Origin: an uncultured Bacilli bacterium
GTDB taxonomy: Bacteria > Bacillota_I > Bacilli_A > RF39 > UBA660
Direction of reading: 5' to 3'
DNA: 64,000 nucleotides
NCBI GenBank assembly: GCA_963931065.1
Contig: OZ006970.1
Coordinates: 934,903 to 998,902 of the forward strand
The notes under the pieces: generated by a model
Databases searched by the model: none
What the model was told of the DNA's origin: nothing
Seen by the model: the letters and a program-made list of their open reading frames with translations, nothing else
Made by a program: the position numbers and the translations under genes
Shown: positions 31,479-48,341 of the stretch, in pieces
Layout: every line of letters starts with the position of its first letter
How positions within the stretch are numbered: position 1 is the stretch's first letter

Positions 31479-31654
31479 GTTTATCTTTAGAACTTACAAA
31501 ATATTTGGATTTGTATGATTTGTTATATATAAAAGTCAATGTAAAAATACATAAATTGCTAGCAAGTGGTAGAATAGTTGCCGAAAAGTTGCCGAAAATG
31601 GATGAAAAATAAATTTGACAAAAAAGCTTTTTTTTGTTATGATTTACTCGTGAG

Positions 31655-31689
31655 CACTGGAAAGGACTAAGGTCTTCCAGTCTTTTTTT
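31655..31689 (+). terminator. Rho-independent terminator
   Basis: ACTGGAA...TTCCAGT hairpin followed by CTTTTTTTG. Confidence 0.6.
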
Positions 31690-31808
31690 GTATATATTTT
31701 TTTATTTTGAATATATTATTAATGTGGGAATATAATTTCCTACTAGTGAGCACACAAAAGTTATTCTTTTGTGTCTTTTTCTGTTATAATGTTTACAGGT
31801 GATGTACA

Positions 31809-32738
31809 ATGGCAGAAAAAACTTTTTTAACTATTGATGAATTGATAACTAATATTAGATTTAAAAATATTAATATAAAAAATGAAGATGATGTTAGAAA
31901 CATTTTAGAAACTAATAATTATTATTTTATCATGGGTTATAAATTTGCATTTAAGAATAACGATGGAACTTATAAAGAAAATACTTCTTTTGAAGATATT
32001 TATTCATTGTATATATTTGATAAGGCGTTAAAATTAATTATTTTAAATCCTATACTTGAAATAGAGCAAAAACTTAAGACTGTATATACAAATAATTATA
32101 GTTTTAGATATGGATTTAAAGTGAGTGATATACTAAATAGTAATAACTACGATTCATCAAATAATTACTTGAATACTATATTATTAAATCTAGATAAACA
32201 ATTAAATGACTTTGGTAATAAAAATAAAGCAGTAATGTTTTATAGAAATAATCACTCATTTATTCCTTTATGGGTATATATGAAAATATTATCATTTGGT
32301 ATGATTCGTGATATGTTTTATGTATCAAAACCAAATGATAAGGACTATATGAAAAACAAATTAACTAGTGAAAATATAAATAGTAGTGAAGTTGCTAATA
32401 TGTTAAGATTACTTGTTAGAGTGAGAAATATTTGTTGTCATGATGATATACTATTATCATTTGTAGATGATAAATTAGGTATAAAAACTACAAAATATCA
32501 TAAAGAATTTAACTTAAAGAAAGATAAAAATAATAATATTATTCAAGGAAAAAAAGATTTGTTTGCTATTTTAATCTCTATAAAGTTTTTTTCTACTCGC
32601 AAGAAGTTTAATACTTTAATAGATAATTTATCAAAATTAATAAATGAGTATGACAAAAAAATTGGTTCATTAAATAGAAAGCAATTATTGTCAATAATGC
32701 ATTTGCCAGAAGATTTTGAAATATTAAAAAAATTATAA
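31809..32738 (+). CDS. Abi_2 family (AbiD/AbiF-like) abortive infection protein
   Basis: 309 aa; 'IPLWVYMKILSFGMIRDMFY' and 'LLVRVRNICCHDDIL' match Abi_2 signature regions; extended -10 TGTTATAAT upstream. Confidence 0.65.
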   Translation: MAEKTFLTIDELITNIRFKNINIKNEDDVRNILETNNYYFIMGYKFAFKNNDGTYKENTSFEDIYSLYIFDKALKLIILNPILEIEQKLKTVYTNNYSFRYGFKVSDILNSNNYDSSNNYLNTILLNLDKQLNDFGNKNKAVMFYRNNHSFIPLWVYMKILSFGMIRDMFYVSKPNDKDYMKNKLTSENINSSEVANMLRLLVRVRNICCHDDILLSFVDDKLGIKTTKYHKEFNLKKDKNNNIIQGKKDLFAILISIKFFSTRKKFNTLIDNLSKLINEYDKKIGSLNRKQLLSIMHLPEDFEILKKL

Positions 32739-33799: not shown

Positions 33800-35287
33800 A
33801 TGGAAAAGGTATATTGTTGTATTGATTTAAAGAGTTTTTATGCATCAGTAGAATGTGTTGAAAGAGGACTTAATCCTTTGAAAACTAATCTTGTTGTTGC
33901 CGATAAATCTAGAACAGAAAAGACAATCTGTTTAGCAGTAAGTCCAGCATTGAAGCAGTATGGTATTCCTGGTAGAGCGAGACTTTTTGAAGTGTTAAGT
34001 AAGGTTAAAGAGATCAATAAAATGAGAAGAAAAGCTAATGGCTATAAAAAGTTTAGTGGTAAATCTGTTAATGATGATATTTTAAAGAAAGATAAGACTA
34101 AAGAACTTGATTTAATTATCGCTCCTCCTAGAATGGCTCATTATATTGATTATTCAGCTAAAATATATAATATCTATTTAAAGTACATTGCTAAAGAAGA
34201 TATATTTGTTTACTCTATAGATGAAGTTTTTATGGATTTAACTAATTACTTAAAATATTATAAACTATCTCCTAAAGACTTAATAACTAAAATAATTAAA
34301 GATGTTTATGATACAACTGGTATTACAGCGACTGGGGGAATTGGTACTAACTTATTTCTTGCTAAAGTAGCTATGGATGTAGTTGCAAAACATATTACAC
34401 CTAATGAGTTTGGAGTAAGAGTTGCCGAACTTAACGAAATGTCTTATAGACAGTTGATATGGAGTCATGTGCCTATTACAGATATTTGGAGAGTAGGTAG
34501 GGGTATTTCTAAAAGATTAGAGAAGTATGGTATGTATACAATGGGTGATGTTGCAAGATGTTCTATTAATAATGAAGATTTACTATATAAATTATTTGGT
34601 GTTAATGCCGAACTTCTAATAGACCATGCTTGGGGTTATGAGCCTTGTACAATAGAATCTATAAAAAATTATAAGCCCCTTGCAAAAAGTATAAGTAGTG
34701 GTCAAGTTTTACAGTGTCCATATGATTATAATAAGACAAAGTTAATAGTAAGAGAGATGGCTGATTTACTAGCATTAGATCTTGTTTCAAAAAAATTAGT
34801 AACAGAACAATTAGTCTTAACTATTGGTTATGATATAGATAATATTACTGATGATTATAATGGAGAAATTACAATAGACCATTATGGACGTGCTATACCT
34901 AAGTCTAGCCATGGAACTATTAACTTAGATTATAAAACATCTTCATCTAAAATAATTATTGAAGCGATGATTAAATTATTTGAAAGAATAATAAATCCTA
35001 AACTATTAGTTAGAAGAGTTAATATGTGTGCCACTAAGTTAGCAAGTGAAGAAGATGAAAAAGGTAAAGTAAGATATAGGCAGTTAGATTTATTTTCATC
35101 TTTAGAAGAAAAAGATAATAGGTTAGATTATAATAGAGAAACTTTAAAAGAAGAAAACAATCTTCAAAATGCTATGTTAAAGATAAAGGAGAAGTATGGT
35201 AAAAATGCTATTTTAAAAGGTATGGATTTAGAAGATGGGGCGACGACAATGGATAGAAATAGACAGATAGGAGGACATCATGAATAA
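33800..35287 (+). CDS. Y-family DNA polymerase (UmuC/DinB-like translesion polymerase)
   Basis: 'VYCCIDLKSFYASVECVERGLNP' N-terminal catalytic motif and 'SIDEVFMDLT'. Confidence 0.85.
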   Translation: MEKVYCCIDLKSFYASVECVERGLNPLKTNLVVADKSRTEKTICLAVSPALKQYGIPGRARLFEVLSKVKEINKMRRKANGYKKFSGKSVNDDILKKDKTKELDLIIAPPRMAHYIDYSAKIYNIYLKYIAKEDIFVYSIDEVFMDLTNYLKYYKLSPKDLITKIIKDVYDTTGITATGGIGTNLFLAKVAMDVVAKHITPNEFGVRVAELNEMSYRQLIWSHVPITDIWRVGRGISKRLEKYGMYTMGDVARCSINNEDLLYKLFGVNAELLIDHAWGYEPCTIESIKNYKPLAKSISSGQVLQCPYDYNKTKLIVREMADLLALDLVSKKLVTEQLVLTIGYDIDNITDDYNGEITIDHYGRAIPKSSHGTINLDYKTSSSKIIIEAMIKLFERIINPKLLVRRVNMCATKLASEEDEKGKVRYRQLDLFSSLEEKDNRLDYNRETLKEENNLQNAMLKIKEKYGKNAILKGMDLEDGATTMDRNRQIGGHHE

Positions 35288-35681
35288 TTATGACGATATC
35301 ATAAACATGCCTCATCATGTATCTAAAATAAGAAAGCCTATGTCTTTACAAAATAGGTCAGCACAGTTCGCTCCTTTTTCTGCTTTAACTACTTATGATG
35401 AGAAGGTAAGAGAAGTTGCAAGAGAAACATCTAAAAAAATAGAATTAGATGATGGTATAAAATTAATGCTTAATGAGAAGTTATGCCTTATAAAAAATGA
35501 TATAAAACTAAGACCTAAAGTAACAATTACTTACTTTGTTAGAGATAATAAAAAAGAAAACAGAGGTAGATATAAAACTATAACTGGTAATGCTAAGATA
35601 GTTGATGAAGTGTATAAAAGAATAATTTTAATAGATAATACTATAATATCTTTTGATAATGTAATTGATATTAAGCTTTGA
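35280..35681 (+). CDS. YolD-like protein (UmuD-analogue partner of Y-family polymerases)
   Basis: 133 aa; 'SLQNRSAQFAPFSALT' matches the YolD core motif; translationally coupled to umuC-like gene. Confidence 0.65.
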   Translation: MNNYDDIINMPHHVSKIRKPMSLQNRSAQFAPFSALTTYDEKVREVARETSKKIELDDGIKLMLNEKLCLIKNDIKLRPKVTITYFVRDNKKENRGRYKTITGNAKIVDEVYKRIILIDNTIISFDNVIDIKL

Positions 35682-35783
35682 TTATATTTCTTAAAAATAT
35701 GTATATACTATTATTGTATACTAGTTGACATTTTTAGAAAAAAATAGTATATTTATATCACAGATGAGATTATTCATCTTGGA

Positions 35784-35880
35784 AATGTTTTTCGCTTCTG
35801 GATGGTGCGATTAATAAATGATTCCAGTCGACAATGTTTTTCGCTTCCAGGTGGTGCGACTAATAAATGATCCTGGTTGA
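35784..35880 (+). ncRNA. Two tandem 49-nt repeats each forming a 5-bp stem/20-nt loop hairpin (candidate type III antitoxin-like RNA)
   Basis: Units AATGTTTTTCGCTT-[CTGGA]-TGGTGCGATTAATAAATGAT-[TCCAG]-TCGAC and ...[CCAGG]-TGGTGCGACTAATAAATGAT-[CCTGG]...; upstream sigma-70-like promoter TTGACA(35725)-17-TATATT; downstream terminator. Confidence 0.55.
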
Positions 35881-35886
35881 AAATGT

Positions 35887-35921
35887 TAAAAACTTCATCA
35901 TTTATGGTGAAGTTTTTGTTT
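35887..35921 (+). terminator. Rho-independent terminator between repeat array and toxN-like ORF
   Basis: ACTTCATC...GGTGAAGT hairpin followed by TTTTTGTTTT. Confidence 0.6.
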
Positions 35922-36019
35922 TGCATGTTAAAAAAATAAATTTATATATTGACGAACATAAGTATAATTTAGTATATTTAAATTACATATCATATTTGTT
36001 GTTTGGGGGTGTTTGTAAA

Positions 36020-36487
36020 ATGAAAGTTAAAACTGGATATTTATATCATATTAAAGATGAATACTTTGATGTTGTAAATGATGATAATTTGATGCAAAAT
36101 CATGAAAGAGGAAAGAAACGACCAACATATTTTACAATTAAAGATAAAAATATACTATGGTTTATTCCTATAAGTTCTAAAGTAGAAAAATATCAGAAAA
36201 TAATTGATAAGAAAATAAAAAAATATGGTTTTTGTAATACAATAATGATAAGAAAAATTGCTAGTAGTAATGCTGCTATTTTATTGCAAAATGCTTTTCC
36301 TACCATAGAAAAATATATTGACCATGTGCATACTGTTGATGGAGTACCTTTAAAAGTTCCTACTGACTTACAAGCAGAAATCAAAAGCATGTTTAAAAAT
36401 ATGTTAGGTTTGAAAAAGAGAGGAACTAATTTATTCTTTGCTGATATAGATAGTTTAGTGGAAAAAATGTTAAAAGAAAATAAATAG
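36020..36487 (+). CDS. ToxN/AbiQ-family (type III toxin-antitoxin) endoribonuclease-like protein
   Basis: 155 aa from ATG 36020 (RBS GGGGTG). 'YLYHIKDEYFDVVND...KKRPTYFTI...WFIPISSK' parallels the ToxN/AbiQ N-terminal 'FY.I...Y..YL..FD..V...RPYIGIV...YFAPLSSPK'. Track start 35867 rejected because it overlaps the terminator and promoter. Confidence 0.55.
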   Translation: MKVKTGYLYHIKDEYFDVVNDDNLMQNHERGKKRPTYFTIKDKNILWFIPISSKVEKYQKIIDKKIKKYGFCNTIMIRKIASSNAAILLQNAFPTIEKYIDHVHTVDGVPLKVPTDLQAEIKSMFKNMLGLKKRGTNLFFADIDSLVEKMLKENK

Positions 36488-36546
36488 ATATTATAAGAAT
36501 TGCTAGCCAGTGGATGGCAAATTAAGTTTGTTTCATTATTATATAT

Positions 36547-37176
36547 TTAAAAATATAAGTATTTAAATCCTAGTTCTTTATATACTTCTGATGCTCTAGG
36601 TAGATTTAAAAGATTTGCAAATATTAAATTATAAAGTTCATCAAATAAGAAGATAGCACAGATTGTATAACTTAATATTAAAAAGGCTTTTTTAGGTATT
36701 TTTTTCGCTAGATAAAAACAAAGTGGTACTATTAAATACATTAATAATAAAGCTGATAATCCAAAGACTAAAACACTTCTTAGACATACATAACCATTAA
36801 TATTACCAAAGCTTAATATTTCATTAGTATAATCCCAACACTTTATATGCATGATATGTTCCATAAAGACTCCACCAATATATTCAAGTATTCCAGTAGA
36901 AATCATACTTATAATAAAAACAAATAAAGGATTCTTTCTTTTCTTATAAGTTAAAACATATATCAATATAGCACCCATAGCATAAATATTTATCCATGGT
37001 AAGAAATTACCTCCACGCCAGTATATTTCTTTCGTACCACTATTAAAATAATAGAATACTACTTCGTAGAGCCATCCAAACATTCCTGATATTACTATTA
37101 TTAAACAAAATATTCCTAACATAGTTTTTTTGTCAAAATTATGATCTTTATTTAAATAATCTTTATACTTCTTCAT
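36547..37176 (-). CDS. Polytopic membrane protein
   Basis: Five or six TM helices, no motif recognised. Confidence 0.4.
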   Translation of the reverse strand: MKKYKDYLNKDHNFDKKTMLGIFCLIIVISGMFGWLYEVVFYYFNSGTKEIYWRGGNFLPWINIYAMGAILIYVLTYKKRKNPLFVFIISMISTGILEYIGGVFMEHIMHIKCWDYTNEILSFGNINGYVCLRSVLVFGLSALLLMYLIVPLCFYLAKKIPKKAFLILSYTICAIFLFDELYNLIFANLLNLPRASEVYKELGFKYLYF

Positions 37177-47672: not shown

Positions 47673-47737
47673 AATAAATTATTATGTTAAAGTAATGATG
47701 TATTAAATGAAAGAAATTTCATATAATATAAATGAAA

Positions 47738-47828
47738 ATGTTCTCGCTCCCGGATGGTGCGAGTAATAAATTATTCCGGTCGACAATGTTTCTCGCTCCC
47801 GGATGGTGCGAGTAATAAATTATTCCGG
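47738..47828 (+). ncRNA. Second copy (2 units) of the 49-nt hairpin repeat family, orphan array
   Basis: AATGTTCTCGCTC-[CCGGA]-TGGTGCGAGTAATAAATTAT-[TCCGG]-TCGAC ×2; conserved loop and compensatory stem changes relative to locus 35784. Confidence 0.55.
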
Positions 47829-47841
47829 ACGAAAATATTTA

Positions 47842-47875
47842 AGAAAGTTCTATCAATTGATAGAATTTTCTTTTT
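47842..47875 (+). terminator. Rho-independent terminator after the repeat array
   Basis: GAAAGTTCTATCAA/TTGATAGAATTTTC hairpin followed by TTTTT. Confidence 0.6.
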
Positions 47876-47969
47876 AAAATATTGACTTTTATAGTTATTA
47901 AAATATAGTTACTACTTGTGAAAAGTAAAAATAAAACTTATAATGAATATAGAAAGAAGAGTGAATTTA

Positions 47970-48341
47970 ATGAAAATTTATGTATGTAAAAAATGTGGAA
48001 ATGTTATATTAAAATTAGAAGATAAAAGTGAAACTTTAGTATGTTGTGGCGATAAAATGGAACTTGTTGATGCTAATACTACTGAAGCTGCTACAGAAAA
48101 ACATTTACCAGTATATGAGATTAAAGATGGAATGATTAACATTAAAGTAGGAGAAGTAGAACATCCTATGATGGATGAACATTATATTTCTTTTATAATT
48201 CTTGCAAGTGATAATAATTATATGATTAAAAAATTAAAAGTAAAAGATAGGCCTGAAGTAAGTTTTCCTTATAGTAGTGAATATAATAAAATATATGCAT
48301 ATTGTAATTTACATAGTCTATGGCTTACAGAAATTAAATAA
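47970..48341 (+). CDS. dfx: Desulfoferrodoxin (superoxide reductase)
   Basis: N-terminal 'CKKCGN...CCGDKM' desulforedoxin site and C-terminal 'HPMMDEHYI' centre II. Confidence 0.8.
   Translation: MKIYVCKKCGNVILKLEDKSETLVCCGDKMELVDANTTEAATEKHLPVYEIKDGMINIKVGEVEHPMMDEHYISFIILASDNNYMIKKLKVKDRPEVSFPYSSEYNKIYAYCNLHSLWLTEIK

Follow-up and report, generated by a model that had tools for sequence, protein, structure and literature searches.

Toxicity and rescue have been reported for three loci of the type III toxin-antitoxin family cptIN, and plasmid stabilisation has been reported for the family as well (PMC3401426, PMC4627078). The system of Eubacterium rectale processes its own RNA, leaves a 2',3'-cyclic phosphate and forms a ring of two proteins and two RNAs (PMC4627078). 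In Blower 2012 (33 loci), cptIN units measure 40-48 nt (mean 44.8) and occur in 1.9-3.4 copies next to toxins of 45-213 aa, with tenpIN units reaching 57 nt and toxIN units 62 nt (PMC3401426). The ToxIN systems of Pectobacterium and Bacillus thuringiensis and the AbiQ/antiQ system of Lactococcus are similar in that they combine an RNA antitoxin made of tandem repeats with a terminator and with an endoribonuclease toxin of related fold, and in their A-rich unit boundary; ToxI and antiQ have 34-36-nt units, triplex-stabilised pseudoknots and heterohexamers. Abortive-infection activity has been shown for ToxIN/AbiQ, whereas none has been shown so far for cptIN. Here we describe a locus at positions 35725-36487 of a 64,000-nt stretch of contig OZ006970.1 from an uncultured Bacilli bacterium; this whole stretch is referred to below as the window (G+C 26%). 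The locus is very probably an intact chromosomal cptIN-family type III toxin-antitoxin module. It is a new cptIN locus, the family itself is already known and frequent among the relatives of this bacterium, and its peculiarities are few and modest.

A locus with the cptIN layout

The elements of the locus follow one another in the order promoter P1, 5' hairpin, two 49-nt units, terminator and cptN. The order promoter, about two tandem repeats, terminator and toxin gene is shared with E. rectale CptIN and the cptIN family of Blower 2012, as are the chromosomal location and a host of Firmicutes lineage. The window locus differs in having a candidate promoter between its terminator and cptN and in belonging to an uncultured gut Bacilli lineage. 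A sequence-only reading of this DNA had already proposed a promoter, a tandem array of two 49-nt repeats, an intrinsic terminator and a 155-aa open reading frame (ORF). All four were recovered at the positions listed below, the ORF with the N-terminal residues that had been quoted and the array with a period of 49 and 2.2 copies according to Tandem Repeats Finder (TRF). The features of the locus are as follows.

35725..35753, + strand: predicted promoter P1 of the array, TTGACA-17-TATATT (11 of 12 consensus matches, and conservation)
35762..35779, + strand: 5' leader hairpin AGATGA/TCATCT, between the predicted transcription start and unit 1 (RNA folding)
35784..35832, + strand: cptI antitoxin unit 1, 49 nt (TRF; covariance model R1, 78 bits, E=8e-21)
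35833..35881, + strand: cptI antitoxin unit 2, 49 nt (covariance model R1, 75.8 bits)
35882..35887, + strand: partial third copy AAUGUU, the boundary motif 3' of unit 2 (TRF, 2.2 copies)
35887..35924, + strand: intrinsic terminator between the array and cptN (14-bp stem 35887-35918, 4-nt loop, T-run)
35941..35978, + strand: candidate promoter P2 upstream of cptN (10 of 12 consensus matches for each of two overlapping sites)
36005..36011, + strand: Shine-Dalgarno (SD)-like GGGGGTG, 8 nt before the ATG (read from the sequence)
36020..36487, + strand: cptN toxin gene, 155 aa, predicted endoribonuclease (NCBIfam NF047359, 4RMO match, AlphaFold2/Foldseek)

The core pattern of the units was found in 0 of 100 shuffles of the window, and two tandem units 48-51 nt apart lie upstream of the cptN homologue in 71 of the 73 related loci with enough upstream sequence. 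Thus, the arrangement is far beyond chance. This analysis shows to which family the protein belongs and how it folds, the order of the elements in the locus, the pseudoknot of the RNA (through covariation) and conservation in about 70 species-level genomes.

The identity of the toxin was clear from profile searches. The ORF matched NCBIfam model NF047359 (type III toxin-antitoxin system CptIN family toxin; equivalog) with E=1.1e-47 and a score of 161.6 bits, the cutoff being 90, and the alignment covers positions 1-150 of the 150 in the profile. A profile search of this ORF was the check that the sequence-only reading had itself named for a type III toxin-antitoxin locus, and the significant full-length match to CptN bears that reading out. 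The sole real sequence match in the PDB is to 4RMO_A, CptN of E. rectale (CptN-Er; E=7.9e-21, residues 5-139; PMC4627078); the two toxins share 35% identity, are both 155 aa long and have the Ser-Ser motif in common. The Pfam search of the ORF returned 0 families at E<=1, PF13958 (ToxN_toxin) included, and the PADLOC search returned 0 models at E<=10. Read narrowly, these two results would have led to the locus being dismissed, and it was the NCBIfam and PDB searches that resolved the matter. Pfam domains were likewise found on none of 120 homologues among the matches listed. Homologues of the toxin form 2518 clusters at 90% identity (E<=1e-3) and 1009 clusters at 50% identity, 486 of which reach 1e-10. 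In the NCBIfam scan the CptIN model alone passed its curated cutoff, no TenpN model having been searched directly. TenpIN (PMC12283969) is similar to the window locus in its two longer units (39-57 nt) and in the non-identical repeats reported for it, and differs in its toxin family.

An AlphaFold2 model, built on an alignment of 30 homologues with the PDB sequence left out, had a pLDDT of 95.2 and a pTM of 0.90. Its top Foldseek match was again 4RMO_A (TM 0.85, rmsd 2.5), followed by AbiQ, MazF and ToxN of B. thuringiensis (ToxN-Bt). As modelled, the toxin has a CptN/ToxN/Kid-like fold, with a twisted antiparallel sheet and helices at its flanks. The ORF had originally been labelled ToxN/AbiQ-like, and a locus of the ToxIN/AbiQ family proper would share the overall layout and the fold-level resemblance to AbiQ (4GLK, TM 0.74, E=4.6e-6, 13% identity) and ToxN-Bt (4ATO, TM 0.70). 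However, neither Pfam nor PADLOC places the ORF there, CptN gives the best matches in both sequence and structure by a wide margin, and the RNA has the loop motif and topology of CptI. Membership of ToxIN/AbiQ is thereby effectively refuted and retains hardly any probability, and the proper label for the ORF is CptN-like.

Residue conservation was read from alignments with CptN-Er and 25 diverse representatives of the 50% clusters (27-30 members). The motif IPxSSK-x2-KY, which includes the Ser-Ser pair of the catalytic region and the basic residue after it, is retained in the ORF, and its S52, S53 and K54 align with S51, S52 and R53 of CptN-Er, the Arg of the triad being assumed to be R53. S52 is conserved in at least 90% of the members, K57 is invariant, and the Lys that replaces R53 at position 54 is the family majority; R34-P35, L88, Q90 and P94 vary little or not at all. 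In CptN-Er the scissile adenine is specified by D81, S85 and Y104 (PMC4627078), which align with Ser or Ala, Ala and His, respectively. The D81 and S85 positions are not conserved in the family, and His is its majority residue at the Y104 position.

This divergence of the adenine-specifying residues would also fit an intact-looking but inactive relic, with an attenuated toxin and an array that survives only by inertia. Sister loci have in fact decayed: after an array of this kind, their cptN is truncated, frameshifted or absent. In addition, cptIN loci with shortened toxins are listed in Blower 2012 (PMC3401426). However, the ORF is full length and matched by the profile from end to end, and most of the family likewise has the His and Lys found in place of Y104 and R53. 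Compensatory changes have moreover preserved both RNA stems, and 41 loci have an identical unit 2, which indicates ongoing selection. We therefore consider a relic improbable and continue to read the locus as an intact module.

It could also be supposed that the gene is longer and that part of the repeat is coding. An open frame of 206 aa does run from the ATG at 35867 to 36487, and a 206-aa form whose start is the ATG within unit 2, and whose frame continues through the terminator, is found among public gene calls (cluster representative P0001, 97% identity). However, such an extension would take in the terminator as well as unit 2. Nearly all homologues have a length of 155-160 aa and a start equivalent to 36020 behind an SD sequence, the alignments with the profile and with 4RMO set in at residue 5-6 when the ORF is read as 155 aa, and the 49-nt period is not a multiple of three. 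A 206-aa gene thus has next to no probability, and the called 206-aa form is probably a mis-called start. In the relatives, GGAG is found 9 nt before the cptN ATG.

The antitoxin array and its pseudoknot

TRF delimited the array as 35779-35887, with a period of 49, 2.2 copies, an 80% match and no indels. For the analysis of its structure, 54 distinct units were extracted from upstream of the homologous gene in 73 related genome loci (alignment A1). Stem 1 (S1) of each unit is formed by (U)UCGC with GCGA(N) and stem 2 (S2) by unit positions 15-19 with 40-44. In unit 1 of the window, S1 joins UCGC 35793-35796 with GCGA 35807-35810 and S2 joins CUGGA 35798-35802 with UCCAG 35823-35827, AUAAAUG lies in the A-rich loop, and the tail ends in ..CGAC. 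In unit 2, S1 is again UCGC/GCGA, S2 joins CCAGG 35847-35851 with CCUGG 35872-35876, and the tail ends in ..UUGAA. Even within the window, the S2 stems of the two units differ by three compensatory pair changes.

Across A1, 96.5% of the cells are paired, and 7 of the 10 pairs have changes on both sides, amounting to 85 cells. All five S2 pairs covary, as do two of the S1 pairs, the other three S1 pairs never varying. In a shuffle control, 0 of 500 reached the observed values on four of five measures, and sliding the partners by 1-3 columns dropped the pairing to 22-59%. Thus, covariation in both of the interleaved stems supports an H-type pseudoknot as the fold of each unit, in place of the hairpins that had been suggested for the repeats. 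Single-sequence minimum-free-energy folding of 35755-35925 was uninformative (z=-1.74) because the predicted fold is a pseudoknot, which cannot be represented in ViennaRNA.

The same topology is found in the E. rectale antitoxin (CptI-Er), for which we recovered the 45-nt sequence from a primer in Rao 2015 (AAGUUUACCACUGACCGAUAUGUGGUAUAUAAAUGGUCGGGUUGA). Both consist of S1, a short loop 1, S2, a junction, S1', an A-rich loop 2, S2' and a tail. The window loop AUAAAUG at unit positions 31-37 is A29-G35 of CptI-Er verbatim, and the unit ends, with the tail ..GGUUGA and the head AA(U)GUUU, resemble those of CptI-Er. In A1, A31 and U32 of this loop are conserved in at least 90% of the units and A33 and A34 are invariant; in CptI-Er, both dU30 and A29U abolish antitoxicity (PMC4627078). 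An extended A-minor twist of the A-rich loop 2, with a kink U, is a further feature of cptIN, and the window units agree with it at the level of this sequence motif and its conservation. The window unit differs from CptI-Er in its length (49 versus 45 nt), its loop (12 versus 9 nt), its longer 5' tail, a 4-nt junction between the stems and a stem 1 of 4-5 bp.

Two copies of a 49-nt unit had been regarded as an unusual variant, on the premise that the known families have units of 35-45 nt in 2-5.5 copies. These ranges are wrong, the published ones being 31-62, 40-48 and 39-57 nt with 1.9-5.6 copies (Blower 2012; PMC3401426). Within the clade of the window locus, units of 49-52 nt in about two copies are normal, including a 51-52-nt sub-clade with a 2-nt insertion in the junction. 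As two copies are typical of cptIN and 49 nt lies one base above the cptIN range and inside the tenpIN and toxIN ranges, the window array is a trivial extension of what has been described. A further difference concerns the relationship between the units. Published cptI repeats are described as nearly identical, whereas the two window units are only 80% identical to each other. Between loci (53 loci), however, the identity is 92.5% for unit 1 and 97.2% for unit 2, so the two are separately conserved positional variants with different S2 stems and tails (GAC versus GAA). The exact 49-mer of unit 2 recurs in 41 related loci.

The unit boundaries are also conserved. AAU at the start of the unit is invariant in A1, and AAATG(T) follows unit 2 in the relatives as well. 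With respect to the site of cleavage, homology with CptI-Er suggests ..UUGA^A.., while the uniform invariance suggests A^AUGU; hence, cleavage at ..GA^N and at A^AUGU are both possible.

The position of the array raises the question of whether it acts in trans at all. A terminator placed directly after structured repeats and upstream of an ORF is what leader-attenuator systems have, and the repeats could accordingly be a cis-regulatory leader (an attenuator or a protein-binding site) of the downstream gene. However, no Rfam family matched the region, the topology and loop motif are those of a crystallographically defined antitoxin, and arrays with a promoter and terminator persist where no cptN follows, which would be unexpected of a pure cis-leader. 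A cis-leader is therefore very improbable, and we interpret the repeats as a trans-acting antitoxin. One such array is located in the window itself.

47737..47875, + strand: toxin-less cptI array, possibly related (covariance model R1, 61.5 and 68.3 bits)

Covariance model R1 finds exactly four units in the window, two of which (47737-47784 and 47785-47833) constitute this second array. It starts 64 nt after folD and is followed by a hairpin and T-run at 47846-47875. Farther 3' are a P1-like TTGACT-16-TATAGT (47882-47909), a small hairpin and a desulfoferrodoxin-like ORF (47943-48341). A tblastn search with 30 diverse CptN proteins found no second cptN in the window. A 28-mer of this unit type is present in 46 metagenome contigs. 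In about half of these it is followed by a full-length cptN that is 60-75% identical to that of the window, in several by a truncated or frameshifted cptN, and in at least six there is no cptN; one contig has the folD context. The simplest reading of the array at 47737-47833 is a decayed second cptIN locus in which the antitoxin has been retained. Among the related loci, tandem cptIN cassettes were seen in L016 (5660-6304), L020 (1095-1680) and L039 (5700-6335), the second cptN being 67-85% identical to a family member and split in L020. In L012, L052, L053 and L076 a second array next to cptN lacks a toxin gene of its own.

Transcription signals and a proposed mechanism

P1 is a common feature of the related loci: TTGAC[AT]-N16-18-TATATT is found in 64 of 71, with unit 1 following 44-140 nt downstream, at 52-59 nt most frequently. 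The 5' hairpin has counterparts of other sequence in the same place in nearly all relatives (GCACTTG/AAGTGT, GCTACTT/AAGTGGT, GCCATT/AATGGT), so it is the structure that is conserved and not the sequence. We infer that its role is 5' protection or the presentation of the first processing site. The terminator is the sole terminator-like site in 35400-36800 (1.4 kb), where 0.1 would be expected, and the relatives have an equivalent hairpin plus UUUUCUUUU with a median of -13.4 kcal/mol.

Downstream of the terminator, the candidate promoter P2 consists of two overlapping sites, TTGACG-18-TATATT (35949-35978) and TTTATA-16-TATAAT (35941-35968), which are identical in the 8 closest loci. The spacer of the window sub-clade is 65 nt longer than that of the other loci, and 62 of the 71 are without it. 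More generally, 54 of 71 loci have an extended -10-like TRTGNTATANT that directly follows the antitoxin terminator and precedes the ATG of cptN by about 28 nt. Conservation is 72-90% for the consensus letters of this element, compared with 47-52% for its R and N positions and 47-69% for the stretch between it and the SD sequence. This is no more than suggestive of a separate toxin promoter.

From these features and the characterized members of the family, we propose the following mechanism. The strong promoter P1 would transcribe an excess of a short terminated precursor comprising the 5' hairpin, the two 49-nt units and the terminator. Each unit would fold into an H-type pseudoknot with UCGC/GCGA as stem 1, a stem 2 of 5 bp and the AUAAAUG-bearing A-rich loop running along stem 1. 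CptN, presumably a Kid/MazF-fold endoribonuclease, would be made at a lower level through terminator read-through and perhaps from a weak promoter of its own. It would cut the precursor into single units at the conserved ..GA[A/C]-AAUGU.. boundaries and stay on the cut units in an inactive ring, which by analogy with E. rectale CptIN may contain two proteins and two RNAs. Should the supply of antitoxin fall or the RNA be degraded, as could occur upon transcription shut-off, loss of the locus or possibly phage infection, free CptN would cleave cellular RNA and growth would stop. In this scheme, toxicity, self-processing, stoichiometry and the trigger are all carried over from the family (PMC3401426, PMC4627078).

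Several observations weigh against a functional cptIN module of this kind. The locus is known from sequence alone and its host is an uncultured lineage of metagenome-assembled genomes (MAGs). Pfam and PADLOC gave no match for the toxin, and the Rfam search of the repeat region returned no matching family, only chance-level snoRNA/sRNA matches. The residues aligned with D81, S85 and Y104 of CptN-Er differ, and the cleavage site of the toxin may therefore differ as well. Compared with CptI-Er, the unit has 4 additional nucleotides and its junction and loop are longer, which makes the 2:2 ring an extrapolation. The candidate promoter between the terminator and cptN does not fit the single-promoter model, a 2016 review having described type III operons as using a single promoter. 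Lastly, the cptIN loci tested in E. coli did not protect against phages, neither against 6 coliphages nor against >200 (PMC3401426, PMC4627078), and a role in defence is thus unproven for the whole family.

It is conceivable, if rather unlikely, that the cptIN loci of this clade depart jointly from the described systems in having their own toxin promoter after the terminator, two different antitoxin RNAs and toxin-less arrays that persist in the same genomes. If so, the toxin promoter (TRTGnTATAnT; TTGACG-18-TATATT in the window) would mean that the toxin:antitoxin ratio is set by two promoters and not by read-through alone. Units with mutually orthogonal stem 2 sequences could then form a hetero-complex of units 1 and 2 or could prevent mis-pairing between units, and toxin-less arrays such as that at 47737-47833 might provide a reserve of antitoxin or an 'anti-addiction' module directed at incoming cptIN elements.

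Relatives, genomic neighbours and significance

A genome scan revealed a CptN relative in 280 of the 537 genome stretches that matched the search pattern. The best 80 of these 280 (69-100% identity) all come from MAGs of uncultured gut organisms that bear the label Bacilli, Tenericutes, Erysipelotrichaceae or Mycoplasma, with rabbit, human, mouse and ruminant gut as sources. About 70 relatives have the promoter-hairpin-two units-terminator-cptN layout in common, and the covariance model found units upstream of cptN in every locus having upstream sequence. With respect to mobile elements, a tblastn search of a phage collection found no cptN match, phrog_33519 matches the toxin at E=8e-24, and the plasmid search gave 14 distant matches only, all below 40% identity. 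The umuC-yolD-cptIN-cmpB-sod context is kept in the 8 closest genomes only, the cassette being located among unrelated chromosomal genes elsewhere, and we conclude that the genomic context says little about function.

Concerning the immediate neighbours, the umuC assignment of the sequence-only reading is firm and its yolD assignment is weak. The Y-family polymerase gene (IMS domains, E=1e-27) overlaps a 133-aa ORF by 8 nt (window 33800-35681), and this ORF has a weak YolD match (E=0.011, below the Pfam cutoff). The gap between yolD and cptN is about 1.2 kb in L005, L028 and L036 compared with 0.34 kb in the window (window 35681-36547). On the other side, an additional 1-2 kb separates cptN from cmpB in L003, L005 and L036, so the yolD-cmpB interval is variable in the closest relatives.

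The surroundings had also been described as a defence-rich island. What we found is a single Abi_2/AbiD gene 3.3 kb upstream in addition to the cptIN locus; PADLOC gave no match apart from AbiD on 10 neighbouring proteins. The Abi_2/AbiD gene is located at 31809-32738, with a promoter-like TTGACA-17-TATGAT upstream (region 31615-31790) together with two copies of TACTNGTGAGCAC, which are 96 nt apart and each followed by a hairpin and T-run. Two such motif-plus-hairpin modules upstream of an Abi_2 gene recall the RCd22 RNA with its two abiF motifs. In the AbiF/RCd22 system of Clostridioides difficile (10.1101/2025.04.15.648962), an RNA neutralises a toxic defence protein by direct binding, as in type III systems, although neither its protein (Abi_2, HEPN-like) nor its RNA is related to cptIN. 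An Rfam search upstream of the Abi_2 gene of the window found no abiF motif at E<=1.

To the type III toxin-antitoxin concept, the locus adds little. It does indicate a very high abundance of CptIN in an uncultured gut lineage with small genomes, as judged from the 280 of 537 pattern-matched stretches and the 1009 clusters at 50% identity. Domain-based pipelines miss CptIN toxins because Pfam and PADLOC give no match, and public gene calls sometimes extend the toxin ORF through the antitoxin. The natural covariation set confirms the CptI pseudoknot from sequence in organisms other than E. rectale, with its two stems, conserved AUAAAUG loop and 49-/51-nt length variants. If confirmed, the orphan arrays, the possible promoter of the toxin gene and the non-identical positional units would refine current views on the toxin:antitoxin ratio and on array evolution.

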